DNA from: an uncultured Flammeovirgaceae bacterium
GTDB lineage: Bacteria > Bacteroidota > Bacteroidia > Cytophagales > Cyclobacteriaceae
Reading direction: 5' to 3'
Assembly (NCBI GenBank): GCA_937884755.1
Contig: CAKZYJ010000469.1
Span: 7,666 to 71,665, forward strand
DNA: 64,000 nt
Part shown: positions 57,576 through 64,000 of the stretch, piece by piece
How positions within the stretch are numbered: the first letter of the stretch is position 1
Layout: each line of letters opens with the position of its first letter
Notes under the pieces: model-generated
Database searches by the model: none
What the model was told of the DNA's origin: nothing
Seen by the model: only the letters and a program-made list of their open reading frames with translations
Translations under genes and position numbers: made by a program

Positions 57576-58202
57576 CTAGGAAGGCACGATAATATCCAGC
57601 GCCTCCAGTTGTTGCGGATGCTCGCGCAGGGCCAGTTTGGCCACGGTGTAGAAGGTCTTCATCCAGTCTTTTAGCTCGGCCATAGCCGCCTTACGCATCT
57701 GGGTGAGATCTTGCACTTGCGCCTGGGTTCGGCGTTGCAGCGCCTCCAGCTCCATCACCTGCTGAATCAGCTTATTGGTTTCGTTGAGTTCCTTCTGGGG
57801 TACGTGGTACTTTTCCATCAGGGCCACCGGAATATTAGCGTAGAACTTCTTTACCTGCGCCAGCAAATCGGGAACGGTTTTGCTGCGAGACTGCACCAGC
57901 GAGAGCGTATCGGTATAATCGGCCTCCCGCTTGTAGGCCAGTCGGGCCGTATCCAGATGCATCTGAAAGACGGTAATTAGCTGCTGGCGAGCAGTTTGTA
58001 GCGTTTGCGATGCCGTTTTAGCTTCCAGATCGGCTAAGTACTGCTGTTGCTTCAACTGCTCCAGGTTATCGTACTGCTTCAGTCCGGCTTGCAGCTTCTT
58101 TTCGTCGTAGCCAAACGCCTGAAGAAGGGCTAGTATTTCGGGAGAGTTGAGGGCGTTGGTTAACGCTACGTATACCTGCTTAATAAAACTGTTTTGCTTC
58201 AT
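57576..58202 (-). CDS. all-helical hypothetical protein of a Bacteroidota-typical family
   Basis: Coherent 208-aa ORF: NA...PEI...L..FGYD...L..G, ending WM..F...AK.AL...PQ.LE.L.I. Confidence 0.7.
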   Translation of the reverse strand: MKQNSFIKQVYVALTNALNSPEILALLQAFGYDEKKLQAGLKQYDNLEQLKQQQYLADLEAKTASQTLQTARQQLITVFQMHLDTARLAYKREADYTDTLSLVQSRSKTVPDLLAQVKKFYANIPVALMEKYHVPQKELNETNKLIQQVMELEALQRRTQAQVQDLTQMRKAAMAELKDWMKTFYTVAKLALREHPQQLEALDIIVPS

Positions 58203-58396: not shown

Positions 58397-58575
58397 CATC
58401 TCCCGACGGGAGATGACCATTTCGAGTTCGACACCCCTAAATTCCGTCGGGAGATGGCCATTTCAGTGTCGAGATACCCCAAATACCGCCGGGAGATAAG
58501 TATTTTAGTTTTGAAATGCCCAAATACCGTTGGAATCTGAGCCTATCAGTTTTGATATAACGCAAAATCTGTTGG
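58397..58575. repeat. degenerate tandem repeat, about 41-42 bp period, 4-5 copies
   Basis: GGGAGAT at 58408, 58449 and 58491; AAATACCG at 58481 and 58522; decaying copy at about 58564. Confidence 0.65.
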
Positions 58576-58684
58576 TTTTTGCTCATGCTTCCTCGAGAAT
58601 CCTCACTGAACCTTATCTCTAGGAGAGAATGAAAGCAGTATAGTCGGATCTTTATTAAAAACATAGCAAAATTTGATGAGATAC

Positions 58685-58776
58685 CTCATCGCGAACGAAT
58701 GTGAAGCGATCTCCTAATTAGTAACTATAATGCTTCAATGGAGGAGACTGCTTCGTCATGCTTCCTCGCAGTGACG
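58685..58776. repeat. REP-like palindromic element (GTCA(T/C)TGCGA...GCA(A/G)TGAC type)
   Basis: GAAGCGATCTCC (58703-58714) pairs with GGAGACTGCTTC (58743-58754); outer arms are CTCATCGCGA and TCGCAGTGAC. Confidence 0.65.
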
Positions 58777-59018
58777 GCTAGTTTGATTATCTTCGTGTTT
58801 AGTTCAAAGACTTAATTGGTTAGAAGATGGCCGCCCCAAAACTTATTATACGTTTAATTCTACGGATATTTTTCACATTCCTATCGCCATATAGTATATT
58901 GAGCTGCCAATAAAATAATAGCCTTGAATAACAAGGCGAAATAGCTTTAAGATAAGTAATTAGCAGAATATCTACTATCAAACATCACCTATTGTCAATC
59001 AAATACAACCAATTTACA

Positions 59019-59066
59019 TACGGCAAATAAACGCACCGGTGCGTTTGTCCAGTTGTTGGCTGTAAT
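59019..59066. repeat. attC-like site with an internal perfect palindrome
   Basis: TACGGCAAAT, then the 18-bp palindrome AAACGCACCGGTGCGTTT, then the core GTTGTTGGCTGTAATG. Confidence 0.5.
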
Positions 59067-59086
59067 GCTAAACTTAATAATATTGA

Positions 59087-59575
59087 ATGAAATATAAGAT
59101 AGATGACTATAATGACATTGCTCTTAAGTGTGAAAGTCTAAACTGTACTGTTCCTGATACATTTTCATTTCTTCCTGAGAATTTCTCAAATGCAAATAAT
59201 ATTGATGAGTTCATCTATGCAGAATCTGTAGTCGAACTTAGGAAAATTTTTAAGCAGAATAATATTCAATTAACAAATCTTGAGTTGGGTACTCCAAAAT
59301 TTAGGGTAAGGAAGTACGCTGATTGGATTGGCCCTACGCTATTTATTAGCTTCTCGCTATTATCAGAAAATAATCATTTGATCTCTATTGGTTTAAATGT
59401 TTTGTCTAATTATGTAGGGGATTTCTTTAAAGGAAGTTTAGATGACAAGAAAGTTAAATTTGATATTGTTGTTGAAACAACCAAAGAGAAAGAATATAAG
59501 AGGATTAAATATGAAGGTGATCCTGAAGGGATAAAGCAATTAGATAAAATTATTAAATCATTAAATAAGAAATGA
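59087..59575 (+). CDS. AT-rich hypothetical protein (gene 1 of a cassette pair)
   Basis: 162-aa ORF with a central amphipathic segment (PTLFISFSLLSEN...SIGLNVLSNY..DFFKG); its stop overlaps the next start (ATGA). Confidence 0.7.
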   Translation: MKYKIDDYNDIALKCESLNCTVPDTFSFLPENFSNANNIDEFIYAESVVELRKIFKQNNIQLTNLELGTPKFRVRKYADWIGPTLFISFSLLSENNHLISIGLNVLSNYVGDFFKGSLDDKKVKFDIVVETTKEKEYKRIKYEGDPEGIKQLDKIIKSLNKK

Positions 59576-60300
59576 ATCTTTTTCCAAATTTAACAGGTAC
59601 ACTTAGTGACTTTAATAAAGTTGTTAATGAGTCTCAAAACAAGGCAATTTTTACTCGAGGTGTTGAAATACAAAAGGAAGAAGTTAAAGCATTGAGAAAC
59701 TATCTGAACGAACTGGAAAAAGTCAAAAGCGAGTCTATAAAAAGAGGTAATGAAAAAGACGCAAATCTTATATTATGTTTACAATTTAGTGTAAAAGCTA
59801 TTGAGAAAGAGCTGTTGATGCTGATAAACTTAAAAGAAGACAAAATGGATGAAGCTTGGGACTGCTTAGTCGAATCCCAAAATTTGATCCAAAATGTAAT
59901 TAAGAACCACCCTTTGGGGGGTGAATATTTATTGGGATATGCAAGTAGATTGAAAGGGTACGAAAAGCTTTTATTTCCCAAAATGATGTTTTCCAGTGCT
60001 GGAACAATAATAAAAAATAGCGAGTGTTCAATATGTAATGGAGAATACAGCGAATGTGATCATATTAAAGGCACATTTTACATGGGTAAAATGTGCCAAA
60101 GAATCATAAAAGAAATAGATGAACTTGAAGAAATATCAACAGTTGAAAATCCTGATGACAAAAGATGTCGAGCAAAAGCTATTATTGATAGATCTACGGA
60201 TGGAGTCGAGTATGAAACAGATTTACTCACGTTAAGAACAAAAACACTACAGCCAACAAAGCAGAACACCAAGCCTAGTAAATGTGAACCAGCACATTAA
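59572..60300 (+). CDS. AT-rich hypothetical protein: helical N-domain + CxxC-CxH-C Zn-finger/prohead-protease-like C-domain
   Basis: Segment SSAG.IIKNSECSICNGEYSECDHIKG.FY.GK.C.RII.E...LEEIS.VENP. Confidence 0.65.
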   Translation: MNLFPNLTGTLSDFNKVVNESQNKAIFTRGVEIQKEEVKALRNYLNELEKVKSESIKRGNEKDANLILCLQFSVKAIEKELLMLINLKEDKMDEAWDCLVESQNLIQNVIKNHPLGGEYLLGYASRLKGYEKLLFPKMMFSSAGTIIKNSECSICNGEYSECDHIKGTFYMGKMCQRIIKEIDELEEISTVENPDDKRCRAKAIIDRSTDGVEYETDLLTLRTKTLQPTKQNTKPSKCEPAH

Positions 60301-60380
60301 TTGTCCCAGGTCATGATATTGATATACGAAAGACAATATTCTTAACCCGGCCTATGGCCGTACAGGTCGTTGTGTATCAT
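60245..60380. repeat. attC-like site
   Basis: Inverse core CACTACAGCCAACAAA, internal hairpins (AATGTG/CACATT; CCAGGTCATGATATTG/CAATATTCTTAACCCGG), then core GTTGTGTATCAT at 60369. Confidence 0.5.
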
Positions 60381-60396
60381 TTGAATAATAAAATAG

Positions 60397-60849
60397 ATGA
60401 AAATCTTATCGGTTAGGGATACTCCTGAAATCGCAGCTACTGCCATCAAGTACTTTCAAAAGGTTTGGGATAGTGTTTGGCCCATAATTTACGAAGACTG
60501 CATAACCCACGCTATAGAATCAAAGAACCCGTTACCACAATGGTACTTGATGGAAAAGGATGACGAAATAATCGGCTGTGCCGGACTAGTCACCAATGAT
60601 TTTATCAGTAGAATGGACCTATACCCCTGGGTGTGTGCGGTATTTATTGACGAAAAGCATAGAGGTAACGCTTATGGTTCGTTGCTACTGGAAAAAGCAA
60701 AATCGGATGCCCTCGCAGCCGGGTTTGAGAATCTATACTTAAGCATGGAGCACATTGGATATTACGAAAAATATGGATTCAACTACGTCGGCCAGGGTTA
60801 TCATCCCTGGGGTGAAGAATCCAGAATATATGCGTTAGGTTTAAAATAG
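60397..60849 (+). CDS. GNAT family N-acetyltransferase
   Basis: Motifs IIGCAGLVTNDFISRMDLYPW..AVFIDEKHRGN.YG and YYEKYGF. Confidence 0.9.
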   Translation: MKILSVRDTPEIAATAIKYFQKVWDSVWPIIYEDCITHAIESKNPLPQWYLMEKDDEIIGCAGLVTNDFISRMDLYPWVCAVFIDEKHRGNAYGSLLLEKAKSDALAAGFENLYLSMEHIGYYEKYGFNYVGQGYHPWGEESRIYALGLK

Positions 60850-60866
60850 AAGTATAGCCAGCAGTT

Positions 60867-60941
60867 GAAACAAACAGAAGAAAGCTGGAACCCGTATCTT
60901 TAAGAGAAAATAAGCAGAAAGGATATGAAAACGTTAACTAT
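60867..60941 (+). repeat. direct repeat, copy 1 (copy 2 at 63929-64000)
   Basis: GAAACAAACAGAAGAAAG....AACCCGTATCTTTAAG..AATAAG.AGAA...TATGAAAACGTTAAC.AT occurs in both places. Confidence 0.9.
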
Positions 60942-61086
60942 AGAACTACCCGGTGAAACTAATGAGCAAGAAGCGAAGAGGATAGTTGTCACTGCATTTT
61001 TCGCTGTGGGTATATTAAGTTTGGGTCAGGCAGCATTATTTTTAAGCATCAGTAAGTGAGAGTTTCTGGAAACAGAAAAGATTTGA
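60925..61086 (+). pseudogene. UPF0175-family (putative antitoxin) pseudogene
   Basis: Reads MKTLTIELPGETNEQEAK...GILSLGQAA.FL.ISK*EFLETEKI*, with TGA at 61057-61059 where 'KREFL' is expected, and is truncated. Confidence 0.65.
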
Positions 61087-61096
61087 AGTTAGATCA

Positions 61097-61960
61097 ATGA
61101 GTAGTAAAGAAAGGTACATAAATCCATTTACCGACTTCGGCTTCAAAAAGCTATTTGGGACAGAATTCAACAAAGAGTTACTGATTGACTTTTTGAATCA
61201 GGTACTTGGTGATAGAGAACGAATACAGGATTTGACGTATTTGAATACTGAGCATCTAGGTAATACTGAATCGGACCGGAAAGCCATCTTCGATCTTTAT
61301 TGTGAGAATGAGCAAGGGGAGAAGTTCATCATAGAGCTACAGAATGTAAAGCAGCAGTACTTCAAAGATAGAAGTATCTTTTACTCTACATTCCCCATTC
61401 AGAGCCAAGCACCAAAAGGTACGGACTGGGACTACTATTTAAAAGCAGTGTATACGATTGGCATATTGAATTTTAGCTTTCCAGATAAGAGTGAGCAGGA
61501 GCGTTTTATGAGGGAGGTTCAGTTGATTGATAAAGAAACGGTGGAAGTCTTTTACGATAAGCTGACGTTTATTTATCTGGAAATGCCTAAATTCAAGAAA
61601 TCGGAAGATGAGTTACTTAGCCAGTTTGATAAATGGCTGTATGTATTGAAGAATCTGCATCGTTTACAGAACAGACCCGTTAAATTACAGGAGAAGGTAT
61701 TTGAAAAGCTGTTTTCAGAAGCCGAAATTGCCAAATTAAACAAAGAAGAAATGAGTGCATACGAAGAAAGCCTGAAAGTCTACCGAGATAATAAGAATAC
61801 GATGGATTACGCAATTGAAACGGCCAAAAAAGAAGGAATGGTAGAAGGCGCATCGAAGCGAGAAGTAGAAATTGCGAGAGAGTTGAAAAAGAACGGTGTT
61901 TCAATAGATCTGATTGAGAAAACAACAGGCTTAACCAAAGAGCAAATAGAAAAGTTATAG
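61097..61960 (+). CDS. Rpn family recombination-promoting nuclease / PD-(D/E)XK_2 putative transposase
   Basis: Motifs YINPFTDFGFKKLFG, FDLYC....GE.FIIELQ, YLEMPKF, DKWLY.LK and a 'EIAREL..GVS.D.I.K.TGL' tail. Confidence 0.93.
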   Translation: MSSKERYINPFTDFGFKKLFGTEFNKELLIDFLNQVLGDRERIQDLTYLNTEHLGNTESDRKAIFDLYCENEQGEKFIIELQNVKQQYFKDRSIFYSTFPIQSQAPKGTDWDYYLKAVYTIGILNFSFPDKSEQERFMREVQLIDKETVEVFYDKLTFIYLEMPKFKKSEDELLSQFDKWLYVLKNLHRLQNRPVKLQEKVFEKLFSEAEIAKLNKEEMSAYEESLKVYRDNKNTMDYAIETAKKEGMVEGASKREVEIARELKKNGVSIDLIEKTTGLTKEQIEKL

Positions 61961-61980
61961 AATAATATGGCAAAAATCCG

Positions 61981-62064
61981 TAGCCACAACGTATACACTC
62001 ACCATTAGTCGTTCTAAAAAAGTGATCGCTTAGTGTAACTTATTGAGGGTTGAGTTGTCTCGTA
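61981..62064. repeat. degenerate attC-like site
   Basis: GCCACAAC-GTATACACTCA ... TGAGGGTTGA-GTTGTCTC; the core at 62054 lies 37 bp before the next ATG. Confidence 0.3.
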
Positions 62065-62090
62065 AAAAAATGCACCAACCTGTAAGTTAT

Positions 62091-63086
62091 ATGAAAGCCA
62101 TCACCAAACACCGTTACGGAGGGCCCGAGGTACTTCAGTTAGAAGAAGTGGCCAAGCCCGCCGTAAAAGACCATCACCTGCTTGTGCGCGTAAAAGCCAA
62201 CTCCGCCAATCCGGCCGACTGGCACATCCTGCGCGGCGCGCCGTTCTTTGCCCGCTTCAGTTTTGGCTTGTTCAAGCCTAAAGACCCAAATCTGGGAGCT
62301 GACTTTTCCGGAACGGTAGAAGAAGAGGGCCATGGTGTGACAGATTTCAAGGTAGGTGACAACGTATTCGGAGAATCCCTCAAGGGCGGAGCCTTTGCCG
62401 AATACATCTGCGTTTCCGCTAAGGTTTGTGGTACAATGCCCGAAAGCGCTGAATTCGCTACAATGGCCGCGGTACCCATCGCGGGGCTTACCGCTTTGCA
62501 GGCCCTTATCACCCACGGAAAACTCAAAGAAGGTGAGTCGGTGCTGATTAATGGTGCTTCGGGCGGAGTCGGGCATTTTGCGGTACAAATCGCTAAAGCC
62601 TACGGGGCCCAGGTAACCGGAGTATGCTCCAGCCGCAACCGAGACTTTGTGAAAAGCCTGGGAGCGGATGCGGTGATTGCCTACGACGAAGAGAATATCC
62701 ATCAGCACAACCATAAGTACGATCTGGTGCTGGATACCCACGGCAATCTTTTTCTAGATGATTTTAAACGTATGGGCCAACGAGGCGTAGTAATCGGCTT
62801 CACCACCATGAAGCATATGGTGCGCTTACTCATTAGCACCCTGTTTAGTAAATTTCCGTTAGCCCAGTTCACCGCCCAAGCCAATACGCAGGATCTGGAG
62901 ACATTGGCGGACTTGATACAAAGCCAAAAGGTGAAAGCGCACCTGGAAAAGATCTACCCCCACCAGCAGATTCCCGAAGCCATCGGCTACATTGAAGCCA
63001 TGCGCACCCGGGGGAAAGTGGCTATGGTTTGGGAAGATGCGGAAGAAGTTGAAACTTTACACGAAGTAGTACGAAATACCAATTAG
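62091..63086 (+). CDS. NAD(P)-dependent MDR / quinone oxidoreductase-like dehydrogenase
   Basis: Motifs YGGPEVLQL, GADFSG.V, VLINGASGGVGHFAVQIAK and RGKV. ATG at 62091 is preferred over 62043. Confidence 0.92.
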   Translation: MKAITKHRYGGPEVLQLEEVAKPAVKDHHLLVRVKANSANPADWHILRGAPFFARFSFGLFKPKDPNLGADFSGTVEEEGHGVTDFKVGDNVFGESLKGGAFAEYICVSAKVCGTMPESAEFATMAAVPIAGLTALQALITHGKLKEGESVLINGASGGVGHFAVQIAKAYGAQVTGVCSSRNRDFVKSLGADAVIAYDEENIHQHNHKYDLVLDTHGNLFLDDFKRMGQRGVVIGFTTMKHMVRLLISTLFSKFPLAQFTAQANTQDLETLADLIQSQKVKAHLEKIYPHQQIPEAIGYIEAMRTRGKVAMVWEDAEEVETLHEVVRNTN

Positions 63087-63112
63087 TAGAAACATCCACT
63101 GCGTAGTGTAAG

Positions 63113-63871
63113 ATGAAATTTGAGTTAATCAGTGTGCTAAGCACCATAGAGCGCCTGTATGATTTGCCAAGAACCAGGGAGCGATTCAATAAGTACCTCT
63201 ATCTACTGCAAGGTGATACGAAAAATGAAATGGTATTACCCATCGCCTCGTTCAACCCGATGGGAAAAGAACTGGCTACTGAGAAACTAAAACGATTGAT
63301 TCAGTTAAACGCCGAAGGTATCGCTGCCCAGGAGCTGGCCCGCATTAACAGTACCCTCGAAAAGCACCCCCATCGCACCATCAGGGTAGCCTTAAATCTG
63401 GCTGACGATGTGGAAGGCTCATGGTCTGAATACTACTCCACCGATTATAAAAGCAAGTTTGAAATAGCATCCTTAGTAAAGCGGAATTTTTGCACTCCTA
63501 TTTTCTGGACAAGAGAAAGTGTAACGGAAGAAATCATTGTTCAGCGAGTCAGAGAATACGTTTTCCGAACCCTGTTTTGGGTGCATCGCGGACCGCCCAA
63601 ATCGTTACAAGATTGTTTGGAACAAGAAATTTACGTGCAGGCAAACTCAACAGATGAGATTTCTTTACCGAAAAACCAGGATTTCGGTAACACGGAAAAG
63701 TTCTTATCAGAACACGCTGATTCAGAGGATTATAACGTAAAATTCAACTTCTTCTACGGAGACGAAGCATCAAAATCATTAGAATACGCCACCTATGGAA
63801 TTCTACCGTACGAAGGATTTGAATACGCAAAATTTCTGGCTAAACGAAAACAAGAGCCTTTGTCTGACTGA
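63113..63871 (+). CDS. hypothetical protein
   Basis: Coherent 252-aa ORF (ERF..YL.LLQG..K..M.LPI..FNPM.KE; FFYGDEA...L.Y...G). Confidence 0.65.
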   Translation: MKFELISVLSTIERLYDLPRTRERFNKYLYLLQGDTKNEMVLPIASFNPMGKELATEKLKRLIQLNAEGIAAQELARINSTLEKHPHRTIRVALNLADDVEGSWSEYYSTDYKSKFEIASLVKRNFCTPIFWTRESVTEEIIVQRVREYVFRTLFWVHRGPPKSLQDCLEQEIYVQANSTDEISLPKNQDFGNTEKFLSEHADSEDYNVKFNFFYGDEASKSLEYATYGILPYEGFEYAKFLAKRKQEPLSD

Positions 63872-63928
63872 GCCACCGGCATTATCCGTACTGAACACTG
63901 CCATGCTACACAGTAGCTAACGCCAAAC

Positions 63929-64000
63929 GAAACAAACAGAAGAAAGGTAAAACCCGTATCTTTAAGAAATAAGTAGAAGAGCTATGAAAACGTTAACCAT
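63929..64000 (+). repeat. direct repeat, copy 2; includes the start (63984) of a second UPF0175-like gene running off the window
   Basis: Matches 60867-60941; ATGAAAACGTTAACCAT encodes MKTLT. Confidence 0.85.

Follow-up and report, generated by a model that had tools for sequence, protein, structure and literature searches.

The stretch of DNA analysed here, hereafter called the window, comprises 64,000 nucleotides (nt) of contig C469 (positions 7666-71665) from an uncultured Flammeovirgaceae bacterium, whose assembly amounts to 8.35 Mb in 528 contigs with a guanine-plus-cytosine (GC) content of 44.5%. Our subject is the right-hand end of this window, which very probably holds the remains of an integron-like gene-capture platform, that is, a hairpin entry site followed by a few gene cassettes. 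Every gene from 59087 to the window end lies on one strand and their functions are unrelated, as an earlier note on this DNA had remarked. For comparison, 40 relatives were searched at the DNA level, motifs were counted in 16 congeners, and 130 other genera of the family were included. The labels G002 to G015 designate genomes of relatives, G004 being the closest one. The features that are central to the argument are the following.

59013..59057, forward strand: putative attI-like hairpin entry site, called motif 1, which ends in CAGTTGTT; palindrome AAACGCACCGGTGCGTTT at 59029-59046; crossover triplet GTT at 59055-59057
59058..59064, forward strand: R' arm of cassette 1 (N7 = GGCTGTA), exact reverse complement of 60248-60254
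59056..60369, forward strand: putative cassette 1, two overlapping AT-rich genes (open reading frames (ORFs) 59087-59575, 162 amino acids (aa), and 59572-60300, 242 aa); GC about 30%
60244..60257, forward strand: R'' of attC1, ACAC-TACAGCC-AAC, with N7' at 60248-60254 and the AAC core at 60255-60257; 7/7 complement of the 5' arm
60248..60371, forward strand: attC1, apparently a decayed member of the 'class B' attC family, about 125 nt; R' GTT at 60369-60371; both cores present

The putative hairpin entry site and the end of homology

The palindrome of motif 1 is perfect over 18 bp. The DNA search retrieved the segment 59018-59067 at many loci of the relatives, and the core AAATAAACGCACCGGTGCGTTTnnnnAGTTGTT was counted 36 times, in 10 of the 16 congeners, against no copy at all with a reversed-pattern control. 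In the 130 other genera of the family, the motif is nearly absent. Behind every copy a different, unrelated gene begins, with its ATG 15-60 nt away, and up to nine such sites are scattered over a single genome, most of them without an integrase.

Comparison of 30 motif 1 loci yielded six groups with common upstream flanks, and not a single pair with a common downstream flank. The members of these groups are orthologous loci in different species, and the homology between them stops exactly at the last GTT of motif 1. To illustrate this, G002, G006 and G011 are identical through ...CAGTTGTT (to GTTGTT) and diverge from the next base, and G002 and G006 regain homology at CCG|TT(G/A)G.. At the locus of the window itself, G013, G008 and G015 retain the gene that anchors the locus on the left, or the site, with other genes behind, and G004 carries there a 1107-aa nucleoside triphosphatase instead. 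The earlier note had proposed to compare cassette order between strains. At both sets of loci (G013, G008, G015 and G004; G002, G006 and G011), gene content differs between species at the same position.

Complementary arms and attC-type sites

The mirrored ends that had been placed at 59052-59067 and 60246-60261 do exist, with slightly different limits: TTGTTGGCTGTAATG (59053-59067) is complementary to CACTACAGCCAACAA (60245-60259) at 14 of 15 positions. Taken alone, this inverted repeat is at chance level. For 15-nt repeats with at most one mismatch within 2 kb, 0.43 are expected and one is seen in 8 kb, and 3.7 are expected and six are seen in the whole window. The repeat gains significance from the position of its left arm, which begins precisely where an independently defined conserved site ends, and from the recurrence of such complementary arms at other loci.

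The seven nucleotides behind the last GTT of motif 1 differ between loci. In front of an AAC, their reverse complement was found 0.4-3 kb downstream in exact form at 13 of 37 loci and with at most one mismatch at 22 of 37, the corresponding values of a swapped-arm control being 0.8% (P 2.5e-18) and 11% (P 1.8e-12). The window conforms to this rule, since the 5' end of cassette 1 is complementary to its own R'' at seven positions out of seven (GGCTGTA versus TACAGCC). Moreover, this R'' has the form observed throughout the family, namely an A-rich stretch, xxAC, N7', AAC and A. Given the matching arm and the presence of attC1 at 60248-60371, the segment 59056-60369 appears to be a bona fide cassette, and the covariation of arms across the 37 loci bears out what the earlier note had proposed for this first gene pair.

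Concerning the closing site, attC1 aligns over its full length with the attCs of two complete arrays, in G008 and G007, headed by an Xer-like recombinase gene that we call IntL (mean column identity 70%). The proposal that attC-like sites occur here therefore stands for 60248-60371 and has to be corrected for 59013-59057, which is attI-like and not attC. In the family, an L-box stem with a score of at least 13 comes after 11 of 19 R'' sites; it starts 3 nt past AAC and stops 5-6 nt short of a GTT located 45-190 nt away. Among random AAC triplets, the share with such a stem closing on GTT is only 4% (P 3e-11). The sites of the arrays measure 45-190 nt, and their sequence varies while pairing is conserved, only AAC and GTT being invariant. 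At the level of the family, these sites are imperfect palindromes of 50-200 nt with AAC and GTT cores, an L''/L' box and spacers. This succession of R box, unpaired spacer, L box and variable centre corresponds to the grammar of integron attC sites. The cores had been described as deviating from the integron consensus; on the contrary, they follow the pattern of chromosomal attC sites, AAC...GTT with an L-box.

Genome-wide extraction of such units and a covariance model had also been suggested. The former gave nothing usable, as two naive censuses of GTT-N7...N7'-AAC pairs were dominated by noise (79 real versus 87 control, and 98 versus 152). The latter was more successful: a covariance model, R1, matches 14 of 16 congeners and has 13 matches in this genome, although these matches are not fully independent evidence since the 16 trimmed sites from which R1 was built were chosen partly by stem score. 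R1 finds only attCs shorter than about 90 nt and thus undercounts. Its matches cluster beside IntL genes and not beside canonical IntI genes. A scan for AAC...GTT hairpins by energy only was abandoned: it returned no match at the first threshold, and the DNA energies of true sites (-0.1 to -0.19 kcal/nt) are so weak that it cannot discriminate.

One would also wonder whether any recombination system has to be invoked at all. The repeat could be fortuitous, motif 1 could be the promoter, operator or terminator of a regulon, and the locus a hypervariable islet. The chance level of the inverted repeat in 8 kb, the constant position of motif 1 close upstream of an ATG, its perfect palindrome and the lack of a significant fold for attC1 would all suit this explanation. 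However, a regulon would retain its downstream genes, and no downstream flank is common among the 30 loci. Nor would it account for the covariation of arms (P ~1e-18), for a motif 1-type site directly behind the stop codon of a recombinase gene (see below), or for stems whose sequence changes with their pairing kept. The promoter reading in particular was ruled out, as motif 1 has no Bacteroidota -33/-7 pattern and the genes downstream are never common. We therefore regard an explanation without recombination as very improbable.

Recombinases of the relatives and the proposed platform

The earlier note had seen no recombinase in the window, and there is none in the whole assembly either: we found no IntI (TIGR02249 scores of at most 81 bits for a cut-off of 265) and no IntL (no NF040815 match over the cut-off). 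The genome possesses two housekeeping-type Xer genes, which score just below the NF040815 cut-off (214 and 205 bits), and two short IntL remnants. A tyrosine recombinase accompanying the sites, which the earlier note had recommended looking for, came to light in the relatives. A search of the genus with TIGR02249 returned two canonical IntI genes and many two-part matches below the threshold. The latter are the Xer-like IntL recombinases, proteins of 385-530 aa with an N-terminal extension, and they head textbook arrays. With 243 and 227 bits, IntL passes the NF040815 model for 'site-specific tyrosine recombinase/integron integrase' (cut-off 220); with 206 and 230 bits, it stays below the TIGR02249 cut-off of 265. 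When it is aligned with the IntI of G011, about 45 residues are missing exactly at the signature insertion of IntI, and among solved structures XerA proteins come closest to IntL, before IntI4. An IntI with the additional domain is thus absent beside the array of the window, and the array-linked IntL of the relatives is devoid of the insertion as well.

Two arrays illustrate the intact organisation. In G008 (contig C81), a 385-aa IntL is followed by a hairpin site ending in ATTGTT and by at least seven co-oriented cassettes, one of which carries a PDDEXK_2 gene, in a perfect chain of R' and R'' arms. A similar array with at least five cassettes and an equally perfect chain is present in G007 (contig C2). 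At all seven intact loci examined, a hairpin plus GTT site lies 60-150 nt past the stop codon of IntL, and these sites display at least five different stem sequences with pairing kept. Motif 1 is directly adjoined by IntL remnants at three loci of relatives and, in this genome, on contig C349; the site in the window has neither integrase nor remnant next to it. By analogy with the relatives, where it directly follows the recombinase gene, the segment 59013-59057 is best described as an attI-like entry site.

One could assume that the locus is rather the relic of a canonical integron, whose sites would be served by a true IntI and for which the Xer-like neighbours would be mere bystanders. Supporting this idea, the AAC/GTT cores, the L-box, the asymmetry of the spacers and the length of 50-200 nt belong to the classical attC grammar, and two relatives encode an IntI over the TIGR02249 cut-off (G011:C1:2883119-2884063, 440 bits; G004:C1:365627-366592, 327 bits). 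However, neither gene is adjoined by motif 1 or by a credible attC array, a single match with an E-value of 0.65 being found in 70 kb and a chain search remaining at noise level, so that both loci look like In0 elements. Both genes coexist with IntL-type arrays in the same genomes; the arrays start 60-150 nt past IntL at seven loci out of seven, and 12 of the 14 genomes with attC matches lack IntI. This explanation thus appears improbable to us. As a separate observation, about 100-350 nt past the stop codon of the G004 IntI (L099) there are four to five repeats of about 45 nt, each of which contains an imperfect palindrome around ACCGGT (TTTGACCGGTxAAAC...GTTGACCCTCATCxACTTT).

A parallel can also be drawn with modules moved by the housekeeping XerC/XerD at dif-like sites, such as integrative mobile elements exploiting Xer (IMEX) or the pdif modules of Acinetobacter plasmids. 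In both situations an Xer-family recombinase is combined with small gene modules at short specific sites; the recombinase linked to the arrays is Xer-like, and the two Xer-type genes of this genome fall just below the NF040815 cut-off. Unlike these systems, the sites considered here are long, structured and variable, that is, imperfect palindromes of 50-200 nt with AAC/GTT cores, and no 28-bp sites with conserved XerC and XerD arms flank the module. Furthermore, the cassettes are co-oriented and chained directionally by arms specific to each unit, and a dedicated recombinase gene heads each intact array. We give very little credit to a dif-type origin.

We propose that the region very probably derives from an integron-like gene-capture platform, of which it is a decayed relic without integrase; platforms of this type are common in the genus. 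In the intact platforms of the relatives, an Xer-like IntL gene without the IntI-specific insertion comes first, followed within about 150 nt and on the same strand by the hairpin entry site (...CA(G/A)(T/A)TGTT), the putative equivalent of attI. Co-oriented cassettes come next, each closed by an attC-type imperfect palindrome with the layout N7'-AAC, 3-nt spacer, L'', variable centre, L', 5-6-nt spacer and GTT. Recombination at G|TT would join a circular cassette to the entry site, and with such a crossover a cassette would begin with TT and its own N7 arm and would end with the complementary N7'-AAC. IntL would be the enzyme of the platform, and the sites would act as folded single strands. 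The window would then contain the entry site, cassette 1 with a decayed attC1, an acetyltransferase (GNAT) cassette minus its attC, and decayed PDDEXK_2 cassettes. The cassette array announced by the earlier note can therefore be retained as an integron-like system, but it is short and decayed, with one clean cassette and one that has a 5' arm only. As the genome lacks both IntI and IntL and has only remnants, the array is probably frozen, and this copy would now be immobile. At least six units made of an entry site and a cassette are found in this integrase-less genome.

Several observations weigh against the relic proposed here. Firstly, attC1 folds no better than shuffled sequences (z -0.55 and -0.26), its L-box is broken, with a stem score of 7 where 11 of 19 relatives reach at least 13, and the only match of R1 in the window is a weak one (60324-60384, 14.4 bits) that covers the R' half of attC1. 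It is from these three results that we take attC1 for a decayed site. Secondly, the choice of the sites used for R1 limits the independence of that model. Thirdly, cassette 1 is the sole cassette in the window with both ends, the remaining array being deduced from homology elsewhere, and upstream of the entry site no vestige of an integrase was detected (best score 18.9 bits, for a shuffle mean of 18.2). Finally, the canonical IntI genes of two congeners could in principle serve these sites.

The platform resembles sedentary chromosomal integrons in several respects. A tyrosine recombinase heads it with the putative entry site beside, the cassettes are co-oriented and unrelated, the sites have AAC...GTT cores, an L-box and asymmetric spacers, the 5' end of a cassette mirrors its own R'' (G|TT), and cassette content differs between close relatives. 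The orientation of the integrase has a precedent in the 'inverted' type integron of Treponema denticola, where the integrase is co-oriented with the cassettes. IntL differs from the integrases of chromosomal integrons in its N-terminal extension, in the lack of the IntI insertion of about 45 aa and in a score below the cut-off of the IntI model. The entry site is a short hairpin directly past the stop codon of the recombinase, in contrast to a classical attI, and as many as nine entry sites are scattered over a genome, most without integrase. The complementarity of the arms also differs, as it extends at least 7 nt beyond the core.

A cluster of attC sites lacking integron integrase (CALIN; IntegronFinder; PMC4889954, 10.1101/2022.02.28.482270) offers another comparison. 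The term requires that the attC covariance model detect two or more attC sites within 4 kb and that no integrase be close by. Like a CALIN, the locus has cassette-type sites and no integrase nearby, and it probably represents what is left of a platform in decay; with one entry site and one decayed attC, it may not reach the threshold of two attC sites. In Bacteroidetes, only In0 elements and one complete integron, in Salinibacter, have been reported (IntegronFinder 2.0; 10.1101/2022.02.28.482270). A survey of tyrosine recombinases described the IntI insertion as 'not fully conserved' in an integron-like subgroup, yet essential for integron function (PMC8138268). In our search of the literature, whose coverage is incomplete, we found no account of Xer-like integrases heading attC arrays in Bacteroidota.

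Whether a Bacteroidota lineage runs a distinct integron class, with an Xer-type integrase that never had or has lost the IntI domain, a hairpin entry site past its stop codon and units at many loci, seems to us an evenly balanced question. Integrons are textbook bacterial gene-capture machines, which in practice are recognised by an integrase that possesses a special extra domain. In Bacteroidota, they are regarded as almost lacking. At this locus and in its intact relatives, the full integron grammar is tied to a plain Xer-like recombinase. If IntL does the job, the extra domain of IntI would not be essential for recombining folded sites, and the origin of integrons from Xer systems would become testable. 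Since standard integron finders key on IntI, a phylum-wide pool of cassettes would then be systematically missed, so that a large mobile reservoir in an abundant environmental phylum would be invisible to current tools. The value of the present copy would lie in how cleanly it exemplifies the site grammar and the decay of such platforms.

Neighbouring genes and repeats

The two genes of cassette 1, whose GC content of about 30% is to be compared with 44.5% for the genome, belong to no family in Pfam, NCBIfam or PADLOC, and the same holds for the 252-aa gene listed below. The pair recurs at 45% identity in a metagenome-assembled genome (MAG) of Mucilaginibacter (L113), between genes for an ABC-F ATPase and a radical-SAM protein. 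The 3' tail of the 242-aa ORF includes the right arm of the inverted repeat; this tail is missing from the sole homologue found (220 aa, in the same MAG). The pair is a candidate defence or toxin-antitoxin system. The other features of the locus are as follows.

60370..60866, forward strand: putative cassette 2, GNAT acetyltransferase (gene 60397-60849; Acetyltransf_1, E 2e-13); 5' arm GTGTATC at 60372-60378
60867..61960, forward strand: putative decayed cassette; motif 2 leader 60867-60924, truncated UPF0175-like ORF 60925-61059, PDDEXK_2/Rpn-family nuclease 61097-61960
61980..61990, forward strand: possible, weak vestigial R'' (GTAGCCAC-AAC) after PDDEXK_2, which resembles ACAC-AGGGCAT-AAC after the PDDEXK_2 cassettes of G003 and G012
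62094..63086, forward strand: zinc-type dehydrogenase, a conserved gene and the right boundary of the variable segment
63113..63871, forward strand: 252-aa gene, function unassigned; insertion or deletion relative to G004
63929..64000, forward strand: second motif 2 leader and start of an intact UPF0175-like gene, 85% identical to 60867-60941; its PDDEXK_2 gene lies beyond the window
57576..58202, reverse strand: PQLLE-family gene (NF052641, 169 bits), conserved left anchor of the locus

The core GTTGTGTATCAT, reported earlier at 60369 in front of the GNAT gene, is indeed present at 60369-60380, 17-28 nt upstream of the ATG. It combines the R' of attC1, including its crossover triplet, with the arm of the GNAT cassette. 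Downstream, no R'' or attC matches this arm, the best candidate (11/17) being at chance level, and the GNAT cassette has presumably lost its attC.

The nuclease at 61097-61960 is assigned with confidence (PF12784, E 2e-79; TIGR01784, 119 bits). Its homologues in G003, G012 and G008 are cassettes with clear attCs behind, and motif 2 directly follows the R' of an attC in G012. Seen in the light of these relatives, the PDDEXK_2 modules of the window are probably decayed cassettes with only vestigial ends. After the possible R'' at 61980-61990, no proper R' follows; a possible L-box (TACACT/AGTGTA) is followed by TTG and not by GTT. An Rpn/PDDEXK_2 'transposon' with its own ends was also considered and rejected, the genes being ordinary cassettes in front of attCs in the three relatives. 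PDDEXK_2 genes have only three full copies in this genome.

Two further sites of the earlier note could not be upheld. CCACAAC/GTTGTCTC (61981-62061), in front of the dehydrogenase, has neither a matching arm nor an L-box, and GTTGTCTC is part of the dehydrogenase leader that is conserved in G004 and G015. The unit at 514-1264, said to follow the same grammar, has an arm match of 5/7, as expected by chance, and no hairpin site.

The dehydrogenase is conserved with about 70-85 nt of its leader in G004 (86%) and G015 (76%), and the gene is present in other genera. The 252-aa gene is absent from G004, where a motif 2 leader comes about 80 nt after the dehydrogenase. Both genes are bracketed by two direct copies of the UPF0175-like and PDDEXK_2 pair (60925-61960, and C469 71649-72697), the PDDEXK_2 proteins being 83% identical and the first UPF0175-like ORF being truncated to 44 aa. 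Recombination between these copies could delete or duplicate the genes in between. The leader of about 60 nt that defines motif 2 (GAAACAAACAGAAGAAAG..AACCCGTATCTTTAAG) precedes both modules (60867-60941 and 63929-64000). It is also found at L019 10249-10299. In G004, the gene behind it at the corresponding position is that of an alpha/beta-hydrolase, the leader being kept and the gene being different.

On the left side, orthologues of the PQLLE-family gene occupy the same position in G004, G013 and G008, with 69-91% nucleotide identity. Further left, the segment 53911-57572, with a gene for a 720-aa secreted protein and a gene resembling flavin mononucleotide (FMN) reductases, is missing from G004, where about 1 kb of different DNA is found instead, so that turnover at the scale of genes also affects the DNA left of the cassette locus. 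A transfer RNA (tRNA)-targeted island or a known RNA was ruled out by scans of the interval 56-64 kb, which revealed no tRNA and, with Rfam, only a sub-threshold DUF805b match. Two repeats are found between the PQLLE-family gene and motif 1. At 58403-58529, within the non-coding leader of 850 nt that precedes the entry site, a 41-nt unit (CCGACGGGAGATGACCATTTCAGTGTCGACATACCCCAAATA) is repeated 3.1 times; G004, G013 and G008 retain it at their orthologous loci, and a paralogous leader on contig C144 has it as well. A short interspersed repeat at 58682-58777 (..GCTTCGTCATGCTTCCTCGCAGTGACGG..) has copies of 84-97% identity on other contigs and in several congeners, and it looks like a miniature inverted-repeat transposable element (MITE) or a repetitive extragenic palindromic (REP)-type element.

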